Shown: one piece after another, positions 2,243 through 41,529 of the stretch | How the letters are laid out: the number at the start of each line of letters is the position of its first letter | How positions within the stretch are numbered: position 1 is the first letter of the stretch | IMG/VR virus record: IMGVR_UViG_3300037510_000134 | Reading direction: 5' to 3' (one strand) | Origin: a virus | Taxonomy: Duplodnaviria; Heunggongvirae; Uroviricota; Caudoviricetes | DNA length: 64,000 nucleotides | Translations under genes and position numbers: made by a program | The notes under the pieces: generated by a model | Told to the model about the DNA's origin: nothing | Database searches by the model: none | What the model saw: only the letters and a program-made list of their open reading frames with translations

Positions 2243-2950
2243 TTAAAATCTCTCGGTTTTAATCATATAATCATAAGCTAAAATATGCCCGGCACTAGCT
2301 ACATTAAGGCTACGTACAGATCCATACTGAGGAATGGATACAATTCTCGTAGCTAGTTCAATGTACTCGTCTGGCACGCCAACCGACTCTTCACCTAACA
2401 TTAGAATAGTCTTATCATTCCAATTAAACTCTGGCAATGACACCGACTTGTCATACTCATCAGATTCAGCCACTACAAACTCATATCCTTGAGTCTGAGT
2501 AAAATATTCAATTCCAAGCCGGAATGAATCAATATTATCATAATGAACAACATCTTCATAATGAAGGGTTCCTACCGCACCACGCGGGTCGAACTTACGA
2601 AATCCACTATACATAACACCTTGACAGCAAAATGCATTGCAGATTCTAATAATGGCTGAAAAGTTAAAATCTCTAATTGCATTTACAAATGCAAAGATCA
2701 GGTTGTTCCTACGCGGTACAAGAGCATCTCTTACTTCTTCACGAGTCATCCCTTTGAATTCGTCACGTACGTTTAGTGACCAGTTTCCTTCGCGTAGTTC
2801 AACGCGCTCCTGATGACTCAAATTCAAAAGTTGCTGGGTATACATAGCGCTCCCAATCATCGTTCCATTGATTATAATTGATAGTATCTTGCCATGGACA
2901 CCAATGCCCGCTGATATCATAGAACATAGTAATTCTATGATGACCATCAT
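2243..2950 (-). CDS. SpoU/TrmH-family RNA 2'-O-methyltransferase (SPOUT)
   Basis: SPOUT motifs: NFSAIIRICNAF (motif 1), LMLGEESVGVP (motif 2), IPQYGSVRSLNVASAGHI (motif 3). True start may be the internal ATG at 2749 (168 aa), which would remove the overlap with the upstream ParB-like ORF. Confidence 0.75.
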   Translation of the reverse strand: MMVIIELLCSMISAGIGVHGKILSIIINGTMIGSAMYTQQLLNLSHQERVELREGNWSLNVRDEFKGMTREEVRDALVPRRNNLIFAFVNAIRDFNFSAIIRICNAFCCQGVMYSGFRKFDPRGAVGTLHYEDVVHYDNIDSFRLGIEYFTQTQGYEFVVAESDEYDKSVSLPEFNWNDKTILMLGEESVGVPDEYIELATRIVSIPQYGSVRSLNVASAGHILAYDYMIKTERF

Positions 2951-3173
2951 AAACCATACCGTCTATAATTTCTGGTGCAAAGTCTGGCCAAAATCCACGT
3001 TCTTGAACGGATACTAATAAACGTTCGTATTGATAGTCTCTTTTGAATTCAAGATATCCGCCTTCAATCCAATCCTCCGGCTGGATCTCACAAGTACGTA
3101 TACTCATGATATCTTCTATCGGAATAATATGTAAATGAGGCCATTCATTTTGACATGAACTTACGTAACACAT
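2799..3173 (-). CDS. ParB/Srx-like nuclease domain protein
   Basis: DGHHRI motif characteristic of ParB N-terminal/sulfiredoxin nuclease fold; 124 aa. Confidence 0.45.
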   Translation of the reverse strand: MCYVSSCQNEWPHLHIIPIEDIMSIRTCEIQPEDWIEGGYLEFKRDYQYERLLVSVQERGFWPDFAPEIIDGMVYDGHHRITMFYDISGHWCPWQDTINYNQWNDDWERYVYPATFEFESSGAR

Positions 3174-3439
3174 TAACCCTCATTAGAATAATTAGAGCCG
3201 GACATTGGCTTATGGTTAATCTTGTTTCTCTCATCTTGCACTAGCCAGCCATCAATCCACAATGCAGGATTGTGTCTATTATAGTGATGACCACAGAAAA
3301 GCAGTTCGTGTTGCTTGTCGTCAATCATCTTTACCACTCTTACAAAAGCCTGACTACATTGATTTGGACATGCGTCACACCGATCTGCCAATACAAGCTC
3401 TCGGTAAAATTCCTTCTCTTCAACAAGTAGATCATTCAT
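3173..3439 (-). CDS. hypothetical Cys/His-rich protein (88 aa)
   Basis: CDACPNQC and FCGHHYNRH clusters suggest metal binding. Confidence 0.35.
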   Translation of the reverse strand: MNDLLVEEKEFYRELVLADRCDACPNQCSQAFVRVVKMIDDKQHELLFCGHHYNRHNPALWIDGWLVQDERNKINHKPMSGSNYSNEG

Positions 3440-4455: not shown

Positions 4456-4775
4456 ACGCCGGGGATAAATTCAACGGGCTTACCATCAACAAAACAGTGA
4501 TTATCCTTTGACACCACTCCATGTTTTGCACTACAAATTCTTACTGTTTCCTGATCATATTCATTGGCCTTGTTAATACCGCCAGCCGTACCCGCGATTA
4601 GAAGTCCAAGACCTATCACCATAGCAACGATACTGCCAAATACTTCTGGGCCATCAAATGCATCTGCAAGAGCCAATAGGCCACAAATAAGAACTATTCC
4701 ACCAAGAATAACCATAATAATAAAAACAGCGACCATTTGCACTCCTAAAATTCTCCAGGCGCTACTTGATAGCAC
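4443..4775 (-). CDS. small membrane protein, paralogue B (110 aa)
   Basis: Two TM helices; C-terminal VRICSAKHGVVSKDNHCFVDGKPVEFIPGVWER; tandem duplicate of 4156..4455. Confidence 0.45.
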   Translation of the reverse strand: MLSSSAWRILGVQMVAVFIIMVILGGIVLICGLLALADAFDGPEVFGSIVAMVIGLGLLIAGTAGGINKANEYDQETVRICSAKHGVVSKDNHCFVDGKPVEFIPGVWER

Positions 4776-5677
4776 CTGACATTAATGGATCTCCACATAT
4801 CTACTACTTGATTACGATCATCATAAACATTAATCACGTTATAGTTTTGTGCGATCTGTTCCATAAAGATTTCATATTTGATGATGAAATCTGCACGAGT
4901 ATCACCGGTTTTACGCATAAAGACTGGTATTTCATATCCTACAGGCAATTGAGTATGTAGACGTAATGATTCTTCCGTAGCTTGCCTACATGAATCTTCT
5001 CTACCTGATAGAACAATGAGATCATACCCTAGAACGTAATCGTCACGCATCTGCTGCACTACATCTTCGTATGGTTCATCAAGGTGAACCTTTGTGTAAT
5101 CATATGGACTACGTCTATCACCGTGGTTCATTAACGTACCATCTACGTCGTAAATCTTTGCTTTTGGTTTGCTAGGATCTCTGACGTATGGGACTAGTTT
5201 AACAGGTGCCGGGCGGTTGATCAAGGGATTTGCAGGGAACTTCCCTTGTGCAAAGTAACGCTTGTGCATCGCTCGGATCACATCTGACCCTACCTCATGC
5301 CCTCCGTCTTCGCCACGGATACCATCACGTAGAATACAAACTTCTAGTGGAGTATCCATATCTACGACTTCAATTTCTGCCGCAAAGAAGTCAGCAATCT
5401 TTACCAAACCTTTAACGTATTTGGCATTGAGATTTGTATCTGAACTGATAACATGCCTACCGGCTTTCAGTCCTGCTCGAATGAGCGCATGTTGTTGGAG
5501 CGTAATAGTGTCTTCGTATGGCCCTGGCTTGGTATCCAGGCCCGCCATAAATCGCAAATGATCACGATTCACAATCATGGCTGGCTTGTCGTTAGTCATG
5601 CTCTCAGCCACTATAGCGCGGGCAAAGGTGTCTTTGCCCGACGCTGGTAGGCCACGAATAATCGTGAGTTTAGTCAT
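4745..5677 (-). CDS. pseT: polynucleotide 5'-kinase/3'-phosphatase (T4 Pnkp-like)
   Basis: N-terminal P-loop GLPASGKDT kinase domain; C-terminal HAD phosphatase with DVDGT motif and ending CYQVAPGEF, collinear with T4 Pnkp (DVDGT ... CWQVASGDF). Confidence 0.9.
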   Translation of the reverse strand: MTKLTIIRGLPASGKDTFARAIVAESMTNDKPAMIVNRDHLRFMAGLDTKPGPYEDTITLQQHALIRAGLKAGRHVISSDTNLNAKYVKGLVKIADFFAAEIEVVDMDTPLEVCILRDGIRGEDGGHEVGSDVIRAMHKRYFAQGKFPANPLINRPAPVKLVPYVRDPSKPKAKIYDVDGTLMNHGDRRSPYDYTKVHLDEPYEDVVQQMRDDYVLGYDLIVLSGREDSCRQATEESLRLHTQLPVGYEIPVFMRKTGDTRADFIIKYEIFMEQIAQNYNVINVYDDRNQVVDMWRSINVRCYQVAPGEF

Positions 5678-5806: not shown

Positions 5807-6250
5807 CTATAGATACTTTTCAATAAGATTTGCGATGTCTTCGAAACTGACGCCTGAATCATTCAATGCTGAACCGTTAACACTTGTTGAAATATACCTA
5901 TCGCTGACTTCTAGCGTTCTAAATTCATCAGTCTCATACTTTTCAACAAGATAATTGAAATCTTCAAGTGTTAGATCCATACAAATATCTCTGTCGTTAC
6001 CCGTCCCTGCCCAATTCATAACTGAAGAAGGCAATACTGATTCGCAATCATCCCATAAAGTGGCAGTAGTAGAGCAGCAATCACATGTAGTAACTACTCT
6101 TGATTCAATAGGTGAAATTTCACAAAGCACGCCTAGACAACAATATTTACCGCTGTCTGTCTTTAGACTAAACTTACCTTGTGGATAGTTACCACTGCGT
6201 AGCGCGTCTACCCACTGTTGCTTTACTTCTGGATTTAGAGTTGTATTCAT
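5807..6250 (-). CDS. hypothetical Cys-rich protein between Pnkp and RNA ligase (147 aa)
   Basis: ORF track; CCLGVLC and TTCDCCS clusters; no family recognised. Confidence 0.35.
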   Translation of the reverse strand: MNTTLNPEVKQQWVDALRSGNYPQGKFSLKTDSGKYCCLGVLCEISPIESRVVTTCDCCSTTATLWDDCESVLPSSVMNWAGTGNDRDICMDLTLEDFNYLVEKYETDEFRTLEVSDRYISTSVNGSALNDSGVSFEDIANLIEKYL

Positions 6251-7539
6251 CCCAATTCCTCCGTGTCAGTTACTTCCCCGGTTTTTTCAGCTTCTGTCAG
6301 AAGCTTTGATTCATGTTCAAAGAACTTTGGTGACTTTGCCTTTAGAATATATGGAGCTAGCCCATCTACTCTTACGCAAACTCCTTCATCTACAAGACCA
6401 GCTTCTAGCGGAGGACATTCTTTGAAACCATGATCATTGAATCTAACGTCCAAATAGTCTTCCACATAAGACTTAAAGTGTTCTGCCTTCATTCTAACTA
6501 GCTCTGGTACATGCTTGACACCAATATCCTTACAGAATTCCTTAACCTGATCCCAAGTTAGGTCAACAATTCGACCTTGCGGATTCACATAGGCTACTCT
6601 ATATACATAAAGATCACTTACGCCCTGTGGAATGTTATAAGTATAGCTCGGCTGAATTGGCTTATTAGAGTCTGACCATCCAATTAGTTCACCGTAGACA
6701 ATAAACCCCTCTGGGAGCAGACCTTTGAGACGTGCGCCTTCTCTTGTCCAAATATCTTCTTGGTAGAAATGATTTTGGTCTGGATCATTTGGATCTTTGA
6801 TCACCCGGCGAGAACCATAAACATAGTCGTATTCAGTTTCCTGAACTTTTACACCGAAACGCTTTGCAATACGCTCACGCCAACCTAGCTTACGCTTTAC
6901 TAGTGTGTTCGCAATACGAATACTTGTTCCATGTAGCTTAGCTGTAACGATTAATTCAGTGTCATCTGACAGCCCTCCTGCGTTACGGAAATAATTGTCC
7001 GTGTCAAAGTGCTGCGGAAGGTACTTTTCATCTACACGACGTTCCTTTGGTGCCTTGTTCTTTTCTACCCTAGACTGCTGAACCTTTACGACGTACTTAC
7101 GGCAAATCTCCTGATCACCGATCTTGTCAAAGACGTCTCCCGGCTTTAGTCTTTCAATATCAATACCTGTAAATGATAGAGAGTTCAGAGGCATAAATAG
7201 TGCATCAGAGCGATGTCCTCTAAACTTCATTGCCTTTACCCGGCGATTATCTTCTAGATAACCTCTAATGCCACCAATACGATTTAGATCATCATGACGA
7301 TAAAGGTTGTTATAAGATGTATATTCATGAGAAAGCTGAGTTTCGGCAGGGAACACAATTCCAATATCCCCAACCTTAGTATCCTTACCAACAATAGCTT
7401 GAAAACCTAGCAAAGGTGTTCCAACTACATTATCACAGTTATCTAGCTCATTAATTGCTACGATCTCTACAACTACTGCCGCGTAATTCTTATTTACTGG
7501 CTCTTCAAGCTTCATTCTATCTCCTTTTTGCCCGGCCAA
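6247..7539 (-). CDS. ATP-dependent RNA ligase (Rnl2/Rnl5-like nucleotidyltransferase)
   Basis: Motif I TAKLHGTS fits the KxHGxN/S adenylyl-lysine motif of Rnl2-type RNA ligases; about 200-aa N-terminal extension as in DraRnl/NgrRnl; adjacent to Pnkp as in T4. Confidence 0.65.
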   Translation of the reverse strand: MAGQKGDRMKLEEPVNKNYAAVVVEIVAINELDNCDNVVGTPLLGFQAIVGKDTKVGDIGIVFPAETQLSHEYTSYNNLYRHDDLNRIGGIRGYLEDNRRVKAMKFRGHRSDALFMPLNSLSFTGIDIERLKPGDVFDKIGDQEICRKYVVKVQQSRVEKNKAPKERRVDEKYLPQHFDTDNYFRNAGGLSDDTELIVTAKLHGTSIRIANTLVKRKLGWRERIAKRFGVKVQETEYDYVYGSRRVIKDPNDPDQNHFYQEDIWTREGARLKGLLPEGFIVYGELIGWSDSNKPIQPSYTYNIPQGVSDLYVYRVAYVNPQGRIVDLTWDQVKEFCKDIGVKHVPELVRMKAEHFKSYVEDYLDVRFNDHGFKECPPLEAGLVDEGVCVRVDGLAPYILKAKSPKFFEHESKLLTEAEKTGEVTDTEELG

Positions 7540-22355: not shown

Positions 22356-22547
22356 CTAATCTAAGTTTTTGGTCCCGTAATTCTTACAATTTCTATCATG
22401 TCCAAGATATGTCTCTCCAATAGCATGAACATCAGAGTTACAGCTTCTACACTTGCCAATTCTTTTTCTCATTTTATACCCTTTTTCCGCTTCCCGGACA
22501 TGGTTGTCCTTTGTCAAAATCAAAGTGATCGTAAAGATAAAAATCAT
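22356..22547 (-). CDS. small zinc-ribbon protein
   Basis: CRSCNSD...CKNYG Cys pairs; a second 45-aa zinc-ribbon mini-ORF (MGKTHKCKYCGKP...) lies immediately upstream at about 22485-22620. Confidence 0.3.
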   Translation of the reverse strand: MIFIFTITLILTKDNHVREAEKGYKMRKRIGKCRSCNSDVHAIGETYLGHDRNCKNYGTKNLD

Positions 22548-22637
22548 CTTCCTTTTGATCTACAGGTATTGGCTTTCCACAGTATTTGCATTTATGAGTT
22601 TTACCCATCGCACCTCCTCTTGTCTTCTGTCATATAG

Positions 22638-22709
22638 TGCGTCGGACAGGATTCGAACCTGCGTCTGGGGATTAAAAGTCCCTAGCTAAACCATCTCAGC
22701 TACCGACAC
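22638..22709 (-). tRNA. tRNA-Lys (anticodon TTT)
   Basis: Acceptor GTGTCGG/CCGACGC; D-arm GCTG-AGATGGTT-TAGC; anticodon loop CTTTTAA; T-arm GCAGG-TTCGAAT-CCTGT. Confidence 0.7.
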
Positions 22710-22811
22710 TGGGCTGATGCCTCATATCCGGAGACATCAGCAAAAGACTATAAATTAGTCACTTGGTTTACTATATACTAACACGTTTAAGAAAAGAAGT
22801 CATTCTAAGGT

Positions 22812-22876
22812 TGAAATGTTTTGCCGCTAAACTACGAGGACATGTATTGGAGTCCTCGGGCAGATTCGAACTGCCG
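22812..22876 (-). ncRNA. tRNA-like half element E1: T-arm, acceptor 3' strand, CCA-containing linker, acceptor 5' strand, D-arm
   Basis: Minus-sense reads GGCAG-TTCGAAT-CTGCC CGAGGAC T CCAATACAT GTCCTCG TA GTTT-AGCGGCAA-AAC; canonical T-arm but the acceptor strands are joined by a 10-nt loop and no canonical anticodon arm follows. Confidence 0.4.
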
Positions 22877-22954
22877 TATTTCAATAATTGCTTCTAATCA
22901 GTTGATTTAGCACATAGCGTATGTATTACTAAGTCTAGAGCGATAATCTAAATC

Positions 22955-23026
22955 TAATATGCGCTGCCTCTGCCAATTGGGCTAGGTGGTCATGTAGTGA
23001 CCACCGCAAGATTCGAACTTGCACTT
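22955..23026 (-). ncRNA. tRNA-like half element E0 (same architecture as E1)
   Basis: Minus-sense reads GCAAG-TTCGAAT-CTTGC GGTGGTC A CTACAT GACCACC TA GCCC-AATTGGCA-GAGGC; D-arm nearly identical to that of the tRNA at 24841..24915. Confidence 0.4.
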
Positions 23027-23187
23027 TAACGACTTTTTAGACTGAATATCAATCTAAACTTTGCTCTACAGTACAGTCGTAGAGCCACCGGCGCTCAAAC
23101 CGGAAACTTATGTGGCGGATCACAGTTCTTAACACTCTTTTTGCGCCTCCCAGACGTGATCTCTTACCTAGTGTTAGACCATTACAC

Positions 23188-23919
23188 TTAACTAAACAGG
23201 TATCTGAAGATTGGTCCTGCTGCATCTTCGTCAGTTACTTCATATTGATTTGCTTCTTCGCGGGCAAACTTAACAGCTTGAATTAGCTTGTCAACGCGCT
23301 CTAGCAATTCATTTCTACGTGTAACTGGAATAGCGCCAGAAGTATCAACCTTTGTCCACGTACCTACAATTACATCCTCATGGAAGATTTCAACTTGCGC
23401 CGGGTGCTTATCAGTTGCTTCTGCCTTTACCCAGTTGCGAGGAACCTTCTTAGTACGAACCGTCTGTACTGGAGTTGTCTTGTAGATATCATTGTTCCCA
23501 TCATACACCCACTCAGACGCTTGGTCAAGGGTTGGAAGCTTGGTAATGAAAGTACGTAGATCTACTAGTTGCTTCTCAAGAAATAGTAGATAGGGAACAG
23601 GGACATCAGTAAGTAATGTTTGACCATCTACCTTCAGGTCCGCGCTTGCATGCGCATTTGAATATTCCTTAATAGCTGTAACGTTAAATAGCTTTGTAAG
23701 GGCATCTTCTGCTTCGTTTAGCAGATCCGGCACAGTTACCTGCACCTTTGTACTTTCTGATGGTAACTGGTCCCCTTCTTCATCCTTTGGCTTGTAGGTA
23801 CGATTAATACCACTAAAAAGAGCTGATTTTTGCGCCTTGTGATAAAGTGCTGTAATTGCATCGCGGGCCTTTGACTTTACGCCCTGTTCTACAGCTACAA
23901 TTTGATTAAGCTTTGTCAT
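23188..23919 (-). CDS. hypothetical protein (243 aa)
   Basis: ORF track; no motif recognised. Confidence 0.4.
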   Translation of the reverse strand: MTKLNQIVAVEQGVKSKARDAITALYHKAQKSALFSGINRTYKPKDEEGDQLPSESTKVQVTVPDLLNEAEDALTKLFNVTAIKEYSNAHASADLKVDGQTLLTDVPVPYLLFLEKQLVDLRTFITKLPTLDQASEWVYDGNNDIYKTTPVQTVRTKKVPRNWVKAEATDKHPAQVEIFHEDVIVGTWTKVDTSGAIPVTRRNELLERVDKLIQAVKFAREEANQYEVTDEDAAGPIFRYLFS

Positions 23920-24112: not shown

Positions 24113-24346
24113 TTAAAGTACGAACAATTCTGCCATTGTTCCGTAGAAATTGTATACTTTTGCATTATCCTTTGAGTCTACATAAAAGATATCAACCTCT
24201 GTTGATTCATACCAACAGGTTTCACAGTATCCGCCGGATACTACCTTTTCATTCACACCTGTTACTAGTTTAACATCACGATTGCATTCTCTTCGTAGAT
24301 ACTCTGCAAGAAATTCTTTAAATCTTTTTTCTACTTCTGCATCCAT
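24113..24346 (-). CDS. hypothetical protein (77 aa)
   Basis: ORF track. Confidence 0.3.
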   Translation of the reverse strand: MDAEVEKRFKEFLAEYLRRECNRDVKLVTGVNEKVVSGGYCETCWYESTEVDIFYVDSKDNAKVYNFYGTMAELFVL

Positions 24347-24521
24347 TAATTTAACTTCCTAGTTCCATAGTTAGTGCAATTTTGGTCATGCCCAATATAT
24401 TTCTCCCTGGTAACTACATAAATTTTATTACCACAAGTGTTACATTTACCTATACAGCTCCTGTATTTACTTACCATAATAGCACCTTAATATTGTTTGT
24501 ACCGCTGAGAGGAATTGAACC

Positions 24522-24839: not shown

Positions 24840-24840
24840 G

Positions 24841-24915
24841 TACTTCCGCACAGATTCGAACTGTGAACCTCTTCCTTCTAAGGGAAGCGCCTCTTGCCAA
24901 TTGGGCTACGGAAGC
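24841..24915 (-). tRNA. tRNA with anticodon TAG (Leu codon CUA), class-I length
   Basis: Acceptor GCTTCCG/CGGAAGT, discriminator A; anticodon stem CTTCC/GGAAG with loop CTTAGAA; T-arm CACAG-TTCGAAT-CTGTG; 5-nt variable loop; 5' end overlaps the stop of the HNH ORF by about 10 nt. Confidence 0.55.
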
Positions 24916-25403
24916 TTATTTTTCCAACTTCTATTTGTTGGCTCTTGTGAATGACAGTTAGGGCACATAAATCTGAGATTATCTATTAGATTGTTTAGCC
25001 ATTCTCCATCTATATGGTCTACTTCTAGTGTTATTTCTTTGCCATTCCATTCACTGCCAAGTCCGCACCGTTCACATTTGTATTCCCTATCTGACTCTAT
25101 CAGAGCCCTGCGAAGTCGGAATGCTTGAATACGCCTTGATCCTTCCGGCAAAAATACTAGTATATCTTCCGCATTAAGCTTATTTCTAGATGGTTTATCT
25201 TTCTGCCAACTTTGTCCCGTGAAATGAGAGAAGTCTATTTCATATTTAATCAATCGACTCTTGACATGACTTTGTGTTCCCCCGGCCTGTTTCAGTCCCA
25301 AGTATCTGAGCACACCTGATATTGAATAACTATTATCTACTGCTTCTTGCAGTAGTTCTTTTGTATATTTTATACTGGTAGACATGCAGTAAGTATACCA
25401 CAT
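24906..25403 (-). CDS. HNH homing endonuclease
   Basis: CERCG ... VDHIDGEWLNNLIDNLRFMCPNCH HNH motif. Confidence 0.65.
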   Translation of the reverse strand: MWYTYCMSTSIKYTKELLQEAVDNSYSISGVLRYLGLKQAGGTQSHVKSRLIKYEIDFSHFTGQSWQKDKPSRNKLNAEDILVFLPEGSRRIQAFRLRRALIESDREYKCERCGLGSEWNGKEITLEVDHIDGEWLNNLIDNLRFMCPNCHSQEPTNRSWKNKLP

Positions 25404-39738: not shown

Positions 39739-41529
39739 CTAAAATATTCTGACGCCATCAAGAAAATCAGCTATTTCCGTAGGCATTGTTCTTGATACCT
39801 TTGGCTGGTGCCGTTCTGCCTTGAGTGCTTCAGCTTCTCTATTACGTCTAATTATATCCTCATACGTAATAACTTCCAAATCAGCGTCATCTCTAGGAGT
39901 ATAGGTAGATGCATTGTAGACCGCTCCGCACACCGCGTCGGATAAGTCCTTAGATGATTTATTAGTGTGATCTACCTTTCCATTTGGTAATACGACTAGC
40001 CTCTTGAGTTCATCCTTCAATAGATCTACATCTGGACCTTTGATCATGTATTGACCCATAAGTAAGGCCAGCTCTGAGTAATGATCTCTATCTACTGATA
40101 ACTTTTCAGCCTTTATACCAATACTGTTTAATTGCTCAATTATTTGATCGGAATTCCAGCGGTCAAATGTTACTAACTCAATGTTAAAGCCAGCTCTGTT
40201 TAGGCTAATAATGAAATCTCTTACGTCTGCAAAGTCCACCGGGCGAGTTCGATCAGGTTTCCAATATCTTACTATATCTACTACAACTTCCGGTGAAACT
40301 TCATTCTCAGCGTCAAATATAGCTTTCTTAAATCTGTCCACATGCGCCATAGAAACTGCACAATTATCCTGTACACGAGCAAGGTCGACATGTACATAGT
40401 ATTGCTTACCAGGAACCGGCTTTAGGATGATCTCAGTGGGGCCAGTGATCTCTGATATTCCATTGGCTTGAGTAAATGCTGCATCAATTTTATCCTTTGC
40501 CGGGAACCAGGAACCTTCTACGTTATCAGTTGGTGTAGCGGCAAATCTAGAAAGTGCGTCATCTATGTCATCATAAAACTCCATCTTGAACGTACTTGGA
40601 GTTTTGGTTGTGTTAACTACCCAAGTTGGAGCACGTAAAGCCCATACGTGATCGAATTTGTAATGAATGATTTCATCCTCAGTCCATTCAATATTAAGCT
40701 CATTTCCCCTGACACCATCCGGCAAACTCTCGTCCAGCTTTAATGTAGCAGATTTAGTGTATGTGACTTTTTCCGCAATAGAATCATTATAGTGACGAAG
40801 GATAAAACCATCTTTACGTCTAGGAAAGCTTAGTAGGAGAACTTTGCCATTCTTTTCAAAACGAGACGCTACAGTTCCACGCAAAGTCTTATACATCTTA
40901 TTTGCGCTTGGAGTTTCTGGATCATTGTCATCGAATCCATCAATCTCGTCAAGGACCGCAACTAAAATATTAAGACCTTCAGTACCTTCACCTTCTGAAT
41001 TCAAAGAGTGGACTGTGATGTTGTGGTCAAACTCTATATCTGTCGCTCGTGGATTATATTTCCCGGCGAACCATGGACATAGCTTTACACGAGTTTTGAA
41101 ACCCTTAAAGAATACTGTGGAAGCCTGTTTGGCGTTAATAGCTACGTTTACAATGTCTATGTTGTCGTCTTTAGGCTTGCCAAAATATCCGGCAGGGTTT
41201 CTTAAACATAAAAGCTGATAAACAATATAGCAACAAATTATTTGAGACATCATGTCCTTACCTGACGACTTACCTATCGCCAAGATAATTTCACGACTGT
41301 ATGGCTTAATTACGTCTTCATATGAAGGCTCATCTTTGTAAATATCTTCTAGTGTTTCTCTATTTAAAATTTGTGAGCCTCTTCTAACTATCTCTACTTG
41401 TAATGGAGATAGTGTAATATCTAATCCAAGATACTTCTTGTCATACAGAAATGTCTCTAACTTTACAGGTTTCTCTATAAAGATATCATCCTGCATAGCA
41501 TCTAAAAAGTCGCTAAAATCTAAACTCAT
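39739..41529 (-). CDS. terminase large subunit
   Basis: Walker A AIGKSSGKD, Walker B LVAVLDEIDGF; C-terminal nuclease-like region; 596 aa. Confidence 0.8.
   Translation of the reverse strand: MSLDFSDFLDAMQDDIFIEKPVKLETFLYDKKYLGLDITLSPLQVEIVRRGSQILNRETLEDIYKDEPSYEDVIKPYSREIILAIGKSSGKDMMSQIICCYIVYQLLCLRNPAGYFGKPKDDNIDIVNVAINAKQASTVFFKGFKTRVKLCPWFAGKYNPRATDIEFDHNITVHSLNSEGEGTEGLNILVAVLDEIDGFDDNDPETPSANKMYKTLRGTVASRFEKNGKVLLLSFPRRKDGFILRHYNDSIAEKVTYTKSATLKLDESLPDGVRGNELNIEWTEDEIIHYKFDHVWALRAPTWVVNTTKTPSTFKMEFYDDIDDALSRFAATPTDNVEGSWFPAKDKIDAAFTQANGISEITGPTEIILKPVPGKQYYVHVDLARVQDNCAVSMAHVDRFKKAIFDAENEVSPEVVVDIVRYWKPDRTRPVDFADVRDFIISLNRAGFNIELVTFDRWNSDQIIEQLNSIGIKAEKLSVDRDHYSELALLMGQYMIKGPDVDLLKDELKRLVVLPNGKVDHTNKSSKDLSDAVCGAVYNASTYTPRDDADLEVITYEDIIRRNREAEALKAERHQPKVSRTMPTEIADFLDGVRIF

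Follow-up and report, generated by a model that had tools for sequence, protein, structure and literature searches.

The window analysed here is a 64-kb stretch of phage DNA (IMG/VR record IMGVR_UViG_3300037510_000134; Caudoviricetes) that covers about half of the phage genome. Its minus strand carries a 478-nt non-coding region (22710-23187) between the stop codon of a gene for a DUF7873 protein and tRNA-Lys(UUU). On balance, we think it probable that this region encodes one structured non-coding RNA with two tRNA-shaped heads, a mimic of the YrlA type that has no link to Ro60. That such an RNA exists, that it is structured and conserved, and that it is linked to DUF7873 is well supported; its function we can only infer. 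Judged by sequence, the RNA belongs to an apparently undescribed family that occurs right after DUF7873 in phages of actinobacteria, cyanobacteria, and proteobacteria and in actinobacterial chromosomes.

Two tRNA-shaped modules lie downstream of the DUF7873 gene

A first-pass annotation of the window had described two minus-strand units in this gap, each consisting of a T-arm, a 7-nt acceptor strand, a loop, the complementary strand, a TA spacer, and a D-arm. We located all of these parts. In unit 1, the T-arm GCAAG-UUCGAAU-CUUGC (23006-23022) adjoins a closed acceptor-like hairpin of 7 bp, GGTGGTC-ACTACAT-GACCACC (22985-23005; loop A-CUA-CAU), which is followed by the U8-A9 linker and D-arm, UA GCCCAAUUGGCAGAGGC (22966-22984; the D-arm proper, GCCCAATTGGCAGAGGC, at 22966-22982). 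Unit 2 has the T-arm GGCAG-UUCGAAU-CUGCC (22859-22875), a second closed 7-bp hairpin, CGAGGAC-TCCAATACAT-GTCCTCG (22835-22858; loop U-CCA-AUACAU), and the linker and D-arm UA GUUUAGCGGCAAAAC (22818-22834; D-arm GTTTAGCGGCAAAAC, 22818-22832). Both D-arms were present as annotated, but the unit-1 D stem that had been drawn as GCCC/GAGG is better drawn as GCCC/G(A)GGC with a bulged A. On the other side of the unit-1 T-arm, a 5-nt analogue of the variable loop (AAAGU, 23023-23027) leads to the 5' strand of a closing stem (CGUU, 23028-23031), which the YrlA alignment made by cmscan pairs with AGCG (22962-22965). This closing stem is 3-8 bp long in orthologues and differs in sequence among them. All of these features lie on the minus strand.

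We scanned both strands of the window for a T-arm with a directly adjoining perfect 7-bp hairpin and a D-arm. This strict scan returned units 1 and 2, which lie within 150 nt of each other, and one other site that is long-looped and probably spurious. Shuffled windows, which served as the control, yielded 0.14 modules on average, and the pair of modules in the gap is therefore not due to chance.

The D-arms had been regarded as copies of those of the tRNAs in the window, acquired by gene conversion. We observed that neither D-arm recurs anywhere in the window, and the proposed conversion fails for this reason. Repetition was limited to the generic 9-mer TTGGCAGAG, which is also present in tRNA-Lys(CUU) and at a single further site (4174). 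The two D-arms instead match orthologues in distant phages and Streptomyces.

The heads covary and carry a tRNA-like tertiary signature

RNAalifold predicted 71 pairs from ten sequences, 53 of them with compensatory changes. Pairing statistics were obtained from a 70-sequence alignment; the tested structure comprised the six head stems, the unit-2 stem with its rod, and the flanking helices, and the controls were 500 column shuffles and slid partners. We observed that 91.2% of cells were paired, compared to 78.1% in the column shuffles and 34-44% with slid partners. Both sides changed in 64 of the 76 pairs, and the observed values were attained in 0 of the 500 shuffles. The T stems and acceptor-like stems were paired in 100% of cells. 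Compensatory changes were found in four of five T-stem pairs in unit 1, five of five in unit 2, and all seven pairs of each acceptor-like stem, which takes 20 (unit 1) and 31 (unit 2) distinct sequences among the orthologues. The D stems were paired in 99.6% (unit 1) and 98.6% (unit 2) of cells. The short closing stems S1 and S2d were misaligned by MAFFT (56.9% paired) and were recounted by an anchor-based method. At least five contiguous closing-stem base pairs were present in 84% of modules, compared to 28% in a control in which partners were swapped among modules.

We counted the bases involved in tRNA tertiary contacts in 162 unique modules. U8 and A14 were present in all 162. Base 15 and base 48, the latter just before the T stem, were A:U in 154 modules and G:C in eight, with no mismatch; unit 2 of the window is one of the eight (G15 with C48 at 22876). 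This signature, the Levitt pair 15:48, has served as an argument for the tRNA fold of YrlA (PMC4201824; 10.1101/312249). Together, these patterns suggest that the modules fold as a tRNA elbow on stems that replace the anticodon arm.

These data bear on the possibility that the region consists of decayed tRNA genes, an alternative offered in the first-pass annotation, of duplicated ones, or of a tandem-tRNA junction that mimics a YrlA match. Chen et al. 2014 warned of such junction artefacts in YrlA searches (PMC4201824). The region does lie within a tRNA array, and D1-type arms are common in ordinary phage tRNAs; in a D1-arm pattern search of viral contigs, 119 of 127 matches fell outside modules and eight were heads. 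However, on the two sides of the acceptor loop the strands covary and match each other perfectly in every orthologue. A junction between two tRNAs would show no such pattern, and the covariation refutes this explanation. No tRNA bodies flank the heads, and the heads are conserved across phyla, including in chromosomal copies that occur away from tRNA genes. We give tRNA debris practically no chance of being correct.

The RNA is linked to DUF7873 across phages and chromosomes

The protein gene upstream of the RNA (23188-23919, minus strand, 243 aa) ends in a stop codon that is directly followed by the RNA. Its product matched Pfam PF25283 (DUF7873) over residues 1-242 of 243 with 354.9 bits against a cut-off of 27 (E = 3.3e-106). 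At least 5,505 homologues were found among database proteins, many from the chromosomes of Streptomyces, Kibdelosporangium, Actinomadura, and other actinobacteria, and a scan of one genome per species gave at least 555 matches, Nocardia among them. In the phage collection, DUF7873 was present in 75 records, which include phages of Gordonia, Arthrobacter, Rhodococcus, Pseudanabaena, Microcoleus, Rhizobium, Vibrio, Ralstonia, Klebsiella, and Serratia. PHROGs, PADLOC, and NCBIfam returned nothing for DUF7873, and a PDB sequence search with the protein gave nothing significant. We found no description in the literature of DUF7873 or of such tRNA-like or Y-like RNAs in phages or Streptomyces, and Rfam 15 has no family for the DUF7873-linked RNA.

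Nucleotide BLAST of the region against phages returned tRNA matches only, plus a 123-nt match to Rhodococcus phage NiceHouse. In NiceHouse, a 243-aa DUF7873 homologue (53% identity) is followed by a ~530-nt unannotated gap and then by tRNA-Lys(UUU). The gap holds both modules, and their acceptor hairpins are wholly different in sequence yet complementary. By the first-pass annotation, ordinary intact tRNA genes at this position in related phages would have spoken against its reading; we observed that the relatives carry the same two modules there, with compensatory changes, and not ordinary tRNAs. Eight further annotated phages from six host genera have an unannotated gap of ~340-1160 nt after DUF7873.

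We assembled 105 DUF7873 loci (102 distinct) from phages and from Streptomyces and related chromosomes. An nhmmer profile, built from ten RNAs including that of the window, placed the RNA directly after DUF7873 in 102 of the 105 loci. The module scan detected at least one head in 102 of 102 distinct loci and two heads in 78. Gene and RNA occur as a pair in all 105 loci. As a DUF7873-associated RNA we counted one that is encoded on the DUF7873 strand immediately 3' of the gene, has at least the unit-2 head on its rod, and carries the YGCUC and CUUAAACG motifs. In the window, the profile matched 23114-22707 (E = 6.6e-79, as expected for a member of the seed alignment), all named elements were located, and ~22707-23114 is the part common to relatives. 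Independent support comes from the 102 of 105 other loci in which the profile placed the RNA after DUF7873.

The loci also include variants of the RNA. In L022 (8733-9115) and ~22 of the Streptomyces loci L026-L105, head 1 is swapped for a plain hairpin, and P4, head 2, the rod, and the terminal hairpin are kept. In Kibdelosporangium philippinense (L024, 8733-10283, and L025), a serine-recombinase integrative element with ArdA, a methylase, a relaxase, and a type IV secretion system begins ~250 nt past the DUF7873 stop, inside the RNA gene, as if the RNA were the integration target. The unit-1 acceptor loop of the K. philippinense RNA carries a 91-nt insertion.

The heads sit in a larger structured RNA

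We assessed the folding of the region against dinucleotide shuffles. The 478-nt gap folded at z = -4.46, and the unit-2 domain alone folded at z = -3.40. Unit 2 sits on a rod of 22-24 bp whose 5' strand (segments S2a-S2d, 22879-22921) has AAUCAAC here and AUCGAC in relatives, and whose 3' strand (22759-22816) contains UUUCAA..., CUUCUUUUC, the conserved CUUAAACGUG, and UUAGUA.... The closing stem of unit 2 runs on into three further rod segments, and the single-sequence fold of the window reproduces the rod. Among the 70 sequences, 22 of 24 rod pairs showed compensatory changes and the helices were 90.6-97.1% paired. The internal loops of the rod, AUCGAC opposite CUUAAACGUG, are invariant.

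The 5' part of the RNA has several smaller elements, all on the minus strand. An extra 5' hairpin, GATCAC...GTGATC (23118-23161), is missing from most aligned relatives, and NiceHouse and Phendrix have different extra sequence at its position. P1, CCGG-UUUGAGCG-CCGG (23088-23103), has a conserved TTGAGCR loop; P2, GCUCUAC...GUAGAGC (23063-23085), varies in sequence. The 5' flank of unit 1, GUUUAGAUUGAUAUUCAGUCUAA (23037-23059), folds into a local hairpin (P3) in one model and in the other pairs, as the 5' side of an outer helix, with 22928-22951. The latter positions are the P4 segment, UUAGAUUAUCGCUCUAGACUUAGU, which has the near-invariant core RAYUMUYGCUCYAR. The GAGCG of the P1 loop is complementary to CGCUC of the P4 loop, which makes the two a candidate long-range pairing; RNAalifold pairs GAGCR with YGCUC, with R/Y covariation (GC 5, AU 3, AC 2 in ten sequences). 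Around unit 1, the local hairpins were 81-83% paired in the 70 sequences, and the long-range helix was 94.6% paired but with few compensatory changes.

At the 3' end, a terminal hairpin (22713-22741, minus strand) has a 12-bp stem with compensatory changes and the conserved loop CCGGAUAUG (consensus YCGGAUAUG), and no U-tract follows it. The tRNA-Lys(UUU) gene (22637-22709, minus strand; called by ARAGORN, 59.1 bits with the Rfam tRNA model) begins 4 nt past this hairpin, in an arrangement like that of NiceHouse. The RNase P site of this adjoining tRNA probably sets the 3' end of the RNA. No promoter-like or terminator-like signal above background was found in the gap (22710-23187), and in compact relatives the RNA begins ~10 nt past the DUF7873 stop codon. 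These two observations suggest that the RNA is probably co-transcribed with the upstream DUF7873 gene.

Some relatives have additional features in the rod region. In L002 (3560-3660) and similar relatives, GUCCCACAU, located immediately 3' of the terminal hairpin, is an alternative pairing partner for the outer-rod 3' strand AUGUGGAC, which suggests two exclusive conformations. In Streptomyces (alignment A3, columns 448-460; e.g. L039, L068), the stretch of the 3' strand that joins the D2 side to the rod carries UGAUGA followed by CUGA, a C/D-box-like sequence. RAAUGA is retained in phage versions. This motif may be a kink-turn or a protein-binding motif.

Co-transcription would also fit a cis-acting 3' untranslated region element. 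Under this explanation, the heads would be RNase P entry sites or stabilisers for the DUF7873 mRNA and the tRNA transcript, with no trans-acting ribonucleoprotein, and the mascRNA at the MALAT1 3' end provides a precedent. The short distance between stop codon and RNA and the missing promoter or terminator in the gap favor it, as do the tRNAs that flank many phage copies and are RNase P substrates anyway, the 7-bp stems, and the ACCA present in many loops. However, a stabiliser does not need ~400 nt with the invariant AUCGAC, CUUAAACGUG, YGCUC, and CGGAUAUG loop from Streptomyces to cyanophages. Many acceptor loops are only 4-7 nt long without CCA, and conservation extends over both unit 2 and its 22-24-bp rod. 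We consider a purely cis-acting role unlikely.

The modules are not read as tRNA, permuted tRNA, or tmRNA genes

We used ARAGORN to call tRNAs and tmRNAs and cmscan with the Rfam 15 models to assign RNA families. ARAGORN found no tRNA or tmRNA in 22710-23187. The best match of the Rfam tRNA model (RF00005) in the gap reached 15.2 bits (E = 8.9), below the 29-bit threshold.

In circularly permuted tRNA genes, known from Cyanidioschyzon merolae and other algae, and in archaeal split tRNAs, the 3' half lies upstream of the 5' half, with a short linker. Such genes carry both halves of the anticodon arm at the transcript ends and a bulge-helix-bulge for circularisation, and they yield real tRNAs. 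The first-pass annotation had proposed permuted or split tRNA genes for the window, with top-half mimics among the alternatives. Both units do show the permuted order it described, from T-arm, 3' acceptor strand, and loop to 5' acceptor strand and D-arm, and its observation that no anticodon arm lies between D-arm and T-arm also stood, as neither unit has an anticodon loop. The top-half mimic came near the mark, with heads made of T-arm, acceptor, and D-arm without an anticodon loop. Its restriction of this layout to a few algae and archaea did not hold, since YrlA heads share the same order, as do two-piece tmRNA genes.

A permuted tRNA gene would be transcribed, circularised or ligated, for instance by the phage RNA ligase and polynucleotide kinase-phosphatase (PNKP), and opened in the acceptor loop. 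The permuted order itself, the 7-bp stems, after which come a discriminator-like base and C(C/U)A, and the presence of PNKP and RNA ligase genes in this phage are compatible with such a pathway. We looked for a reconstituted anticodon arm and found a closing stem of 4-8 bp that runs on into a rod, without a 7-nt anticodon loop. There is also no bulge-helix-bulge, and the D-side and T-side flanks pair into conserved rods. ARAGORN and the tRNA model find nothing, and no RNA ligase was present among the called neighbours of chromosomal Streptomyces copies (two contexts). Acceptor loops in orthologues range from 4 nt (ACGG) to ~90 nt or more, and because they can be as short as 4 nt, opening of the loop is no general requirement. 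Taken together, these results make a permuted or split tRNA gene very unlikely.

In alpha-proteobacteria and cyanobacteria, two-piece (permuted) tmRNA genes have a permuted tRNA-like domain with the CCA encoded in a removed loop. Weak cmscan matches to tmRNA models overlapped unit 2, the cyano_tmRNA model reaching 14.1 bits (threshold 70). Both window stems have C:G at position 3:70, no G3:U70, the alanine identity pair, was present in any stem examined, and ARAGORN detected neither a tmRNA nor a tag reading frame. We rejected tmRNA as a candidate.

The heads resemble Y RNAs, and Ro60 is rarely nearby

The Rfam YrlA model (RF02553) was the only non-tRNA family that aligned across the whole head. 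It scored 24.6 bits in the window, 19.0 in NiceHouse, and 31.7-37.6 in other relatives. Among the eight heads recovered by the D1-arm pattern search, four lay after DUF7873 and four in tandem arrays of 3-4 heads. Tandem arrays of 3-4 T/closed-acceptor/D heads occur in the IMG/VR contigs L133 (4900-5640), L126 (3450-3960), L162, and L191; in L133 and L126, the two that were scanned, the open reading frame (ORF) directly downstream of the array encodes Ro60 (TROVE). Heads of these Ro60-linked arrays scored 32-38 bits with the YrlA model, whose 69-bit threshold misses them. In sequence and structure, the DUF7873-linked heads resemble YrlA no less than true phage Y RNAs do.

We searched for Ro60 by tblastn with two Ro60 proteins and by applying the TROVE profile to the six window ORFs of at least 400 aa. 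The profile matched none of the six, and tblastn gave no match anywhere in the window, between 77.5 and 133 kb of NiceHouse, or in 104 of the 105 DUF7873 loci, for which flanks of 1.5-8 kb were covered. Of the 105 loci, just the viral contig L011 links Ro60 to DUF7873: its Ro60 gene (2-1522) lies 1 kb upstream of DUF7873 (2501-3232) and the RNA, and two small ORFs occupy the interval. Ro60 was present in 355 records of the phage collection and DUF7873 in the 75 described above, at least 73 of which are without Ro60. The 11 Ro60 records and 12 DUF7873 records of Gordonia phages were disjoint. Phages of Rhizobium, Klebsiella, Serratia, Arthrobacter, Pseudanabaena, Ralstonia, and Microcoleus had DUF7873 and no Ro60 in this collection, and among Vibrio phages one record had Ro60 compared to 29 with DUF7873.

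These results bear on whether the RNAs are genuine YrlA-family Y RNAs that bind a Ro60 encoded elsewhere in the phage or host, with DUF7873 a bystander or accessory. The heads share architecture and YrlA score range with the Ro60-adjacent phage Y RNAs, L011 does place Ro60 near DUF7873, and the window covers only half of the phage genome. On the other side stand the negative Ro60 searches, the disjoint Gordonia sets, the seven host genera with DUF7873 only, the Vibrio counts, and the invariant linkage to DUF7873. The putative Ro60-binding motif GNCGAAN0-1G, expected near the 5' end, is absent in the window RNA and was found in 33 of 98 relatives, but this is weak evidence; the motif does not discriminate, because the Ro60-linked arrays L126 and L133 also lack it. 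Ro60 binding seems to us improbable.

Chen et al. 2014 surveyed Ro60-encoding genomes only and kept matches within 4 kb of Ro60 (PMC4201824). Because their survey was restricted to the surroundings of Ro60, it could not report the DUF7873-linked RNA.

Several observations weigh against a two-headed YrlA-type RNA as we describe it. Every head scores under the Rfam YrlA threshold of 69 bits, although this threshold does not tell the two groups apart, since Ro60-adjacent phage heads also reach just 32-38 bits. One head only is present in approximately 22 of the 80 loci from Streptomyces and in the phage versions from Rhizobium and Vibrio, and these single-headed versions indicate that the two-headed form is not essential. 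Many Streptomyces copies have acceptor loops of 4-7 nt, which speaks against general processing by RNase P and CCA addition. Finally, the modelled surroundings of unit 1 fit P3/P4 hairpins, a long-range helix, or a GAGCR:YGCUC contact alike, and each remains a candidate.

Proposed role of the RNA

We propose that the rod, with its invariant internal loops, or the terminal loop could bind a protein. By analogy with the rsr-yrlA pair, DUF7873 would be the obvious candidate. The heads could engage readers of the tRNA elbow or of the acceptor-T minihelix, such as RNase P, the CCA-adding enzyme, modification enzymes, or tRNA-directed nucleases. The RNA might then act as a tether or decoy in the phage tRNA and RNA-repair island. 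In phage versions like this one, the 7-bp stems and the loops that begin with A-CUA and U-CCA would make cleavage by RNase P and repair of the CCA plausible, as in M. smegmatis YrlA. That RNA, whose stem also measures 7 bp, is cleaved by RNase P, after which CCA is added (PMC4201824; 10.1101/312249). The unit-1 loops of orthologues begin with ACCA in 22 of 72 cases and with AC in 59 of 72, and the short loops of many Streptomyces copies indicate that such processing is not universal.

Tentatively, and with slightly more doubt than belief, we extend this to a general model. DUF7873 and the RNA would form a Ro60-independent ribonucleoprotein in hundreds of actinobacterial species and in unrelated phages, in which one or two heads recruit or titrate enzymes that handle or attack tRNAs. 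In the phages, the heads would be opened by RNase P and the CCA-adding enzyme into a multi-piece RNA with true acceptor ends.

Genomic surroundings

All of the 22 ordinary tRNAs that ARAGORN identified in the window are encoded on the minus strand. The same genome arm carries a tRNA repair and modification set on the minus strand, consisting of a SpoU-type RNA methyltransferase (2243-2950), a PNKP (4745-5677), and an RNA ligase (6247-7539). NiceHouse encodes two RNA ligases, a polynucleotide kinase, and a CCA-adding enzyme. The tRNA array and the three enzymes of the window, together with the repair genes of NiceHouse, suggest a role for the RNA in tRNA surveillance or repair, or as a decoy for host nucleases that target tRNAs.

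Other features of the window were observed in and beyond the tRNA array. Two paralogous Cys-rich small ORFs on the minus strand (22356-22547, 63 aa; 24346-24477, 43 aa) share ...C..C...GHD.NC.NYGT..L.. and sit between tRNA genes, one on each side of the DUF7873 locus. An HNH endonuclease ORF (24906-25403, minus strand) overlaps tRNA-Leu(UAG) (24840-24915) by 10 nt at its 3' end and is probably a homing endonuclease within the array. A 596-aa ORF (39739-41529, minus strand) had no Pfam match at E <= 1e-3. In Arthrobacter phage Mimi (L015, 1665-1695), a near-threshold match to the abiF RNA motif (33 bits; threshold 37) lies between tRNA genes upstream of DUF7873.

Discussion

Until now, Ro60 has been the partner by which Y RNAs with tRNA-like heads were defined. 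The DUF7873-linked RNA is a second, independent, and much wider setting of the same RNA device. For DUF7873, an uncharacterised protein, an RNA partner suggested by sequence would be the first functional lead. The RNA also accounts for the 340-1160-nt stretch that recurs without annotation across many deposited phage genomes. Closed permuted tRNA mimics become tractable in the Gordonia, Arthrobacter, and Rhodococcus phages of teaching collections and in Streptomyces. For annotation, "half tRNAs" in phage tRNA arrays can belong to larger RNAs and need not be gene debris.

Comparison with known systems

The DUF7873-linked RNA shares with permuted and split tRNAs the position of the T-arm and 3' acceptor strand upstream of the 5' acceptor strand and D-arm; unlike in those genes, its ends form a conserved rod and there is no anticodon loop. 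It shares with two-piece tmRNA the permuted tRNA-like domain. The mascRNA-type and viral 3' tRNA-like structures place a tRNA-like fold downstream of another gene product (as cited in 10.1101/312249), and the RNA resembles them as a potential substrate of RNase P or the CCA-adding enzyme. Those structures have an open acceptor end and normal strand order, whereas here the heads are closed, permuted, and part of a larger conserved RNA.

The Ro60-linked phage arrays are closer. They too have several heads in tandem on one strand, ~100-150 nt apart, with similar YrlA scores. Their heads are 3-4 repeats of one unit with a repeated ~100-nt spacer, directly upstream of TROVE/Ro60, and they are without the P4, rod, and terminal-hairpin sequences of the DUF7873-linked RNA.

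The heads of YrlA itself were described by the authors of its crystal structure as resembling circularly permuted tRNAs with closed acceptor stems (10.1101/312249). Both RNAs have the order T stem-loop, closed acceptor-like stem-loop, UA, and D stem-loop, and in both an analogue of the anticodon stem closes the head and continues as a longer stem. Both conserve the nucleotides of the tRNA tertiary contacts (U8, A14, G18G19, the T-loop, and a covarying 15:48), the 7-bp stem recurs in M. smegmatis YrlA, and the gene lies beside a protein gene and, in phages, often beside tRNAs. Unlike YrlA, the DUF7873-linked RNA has DUF7873 as its upstream neighbour in place of Ro60, and it combines two different heads within ~400 nt with P1, P4, and a terminal CGGAUAUG hairpin.

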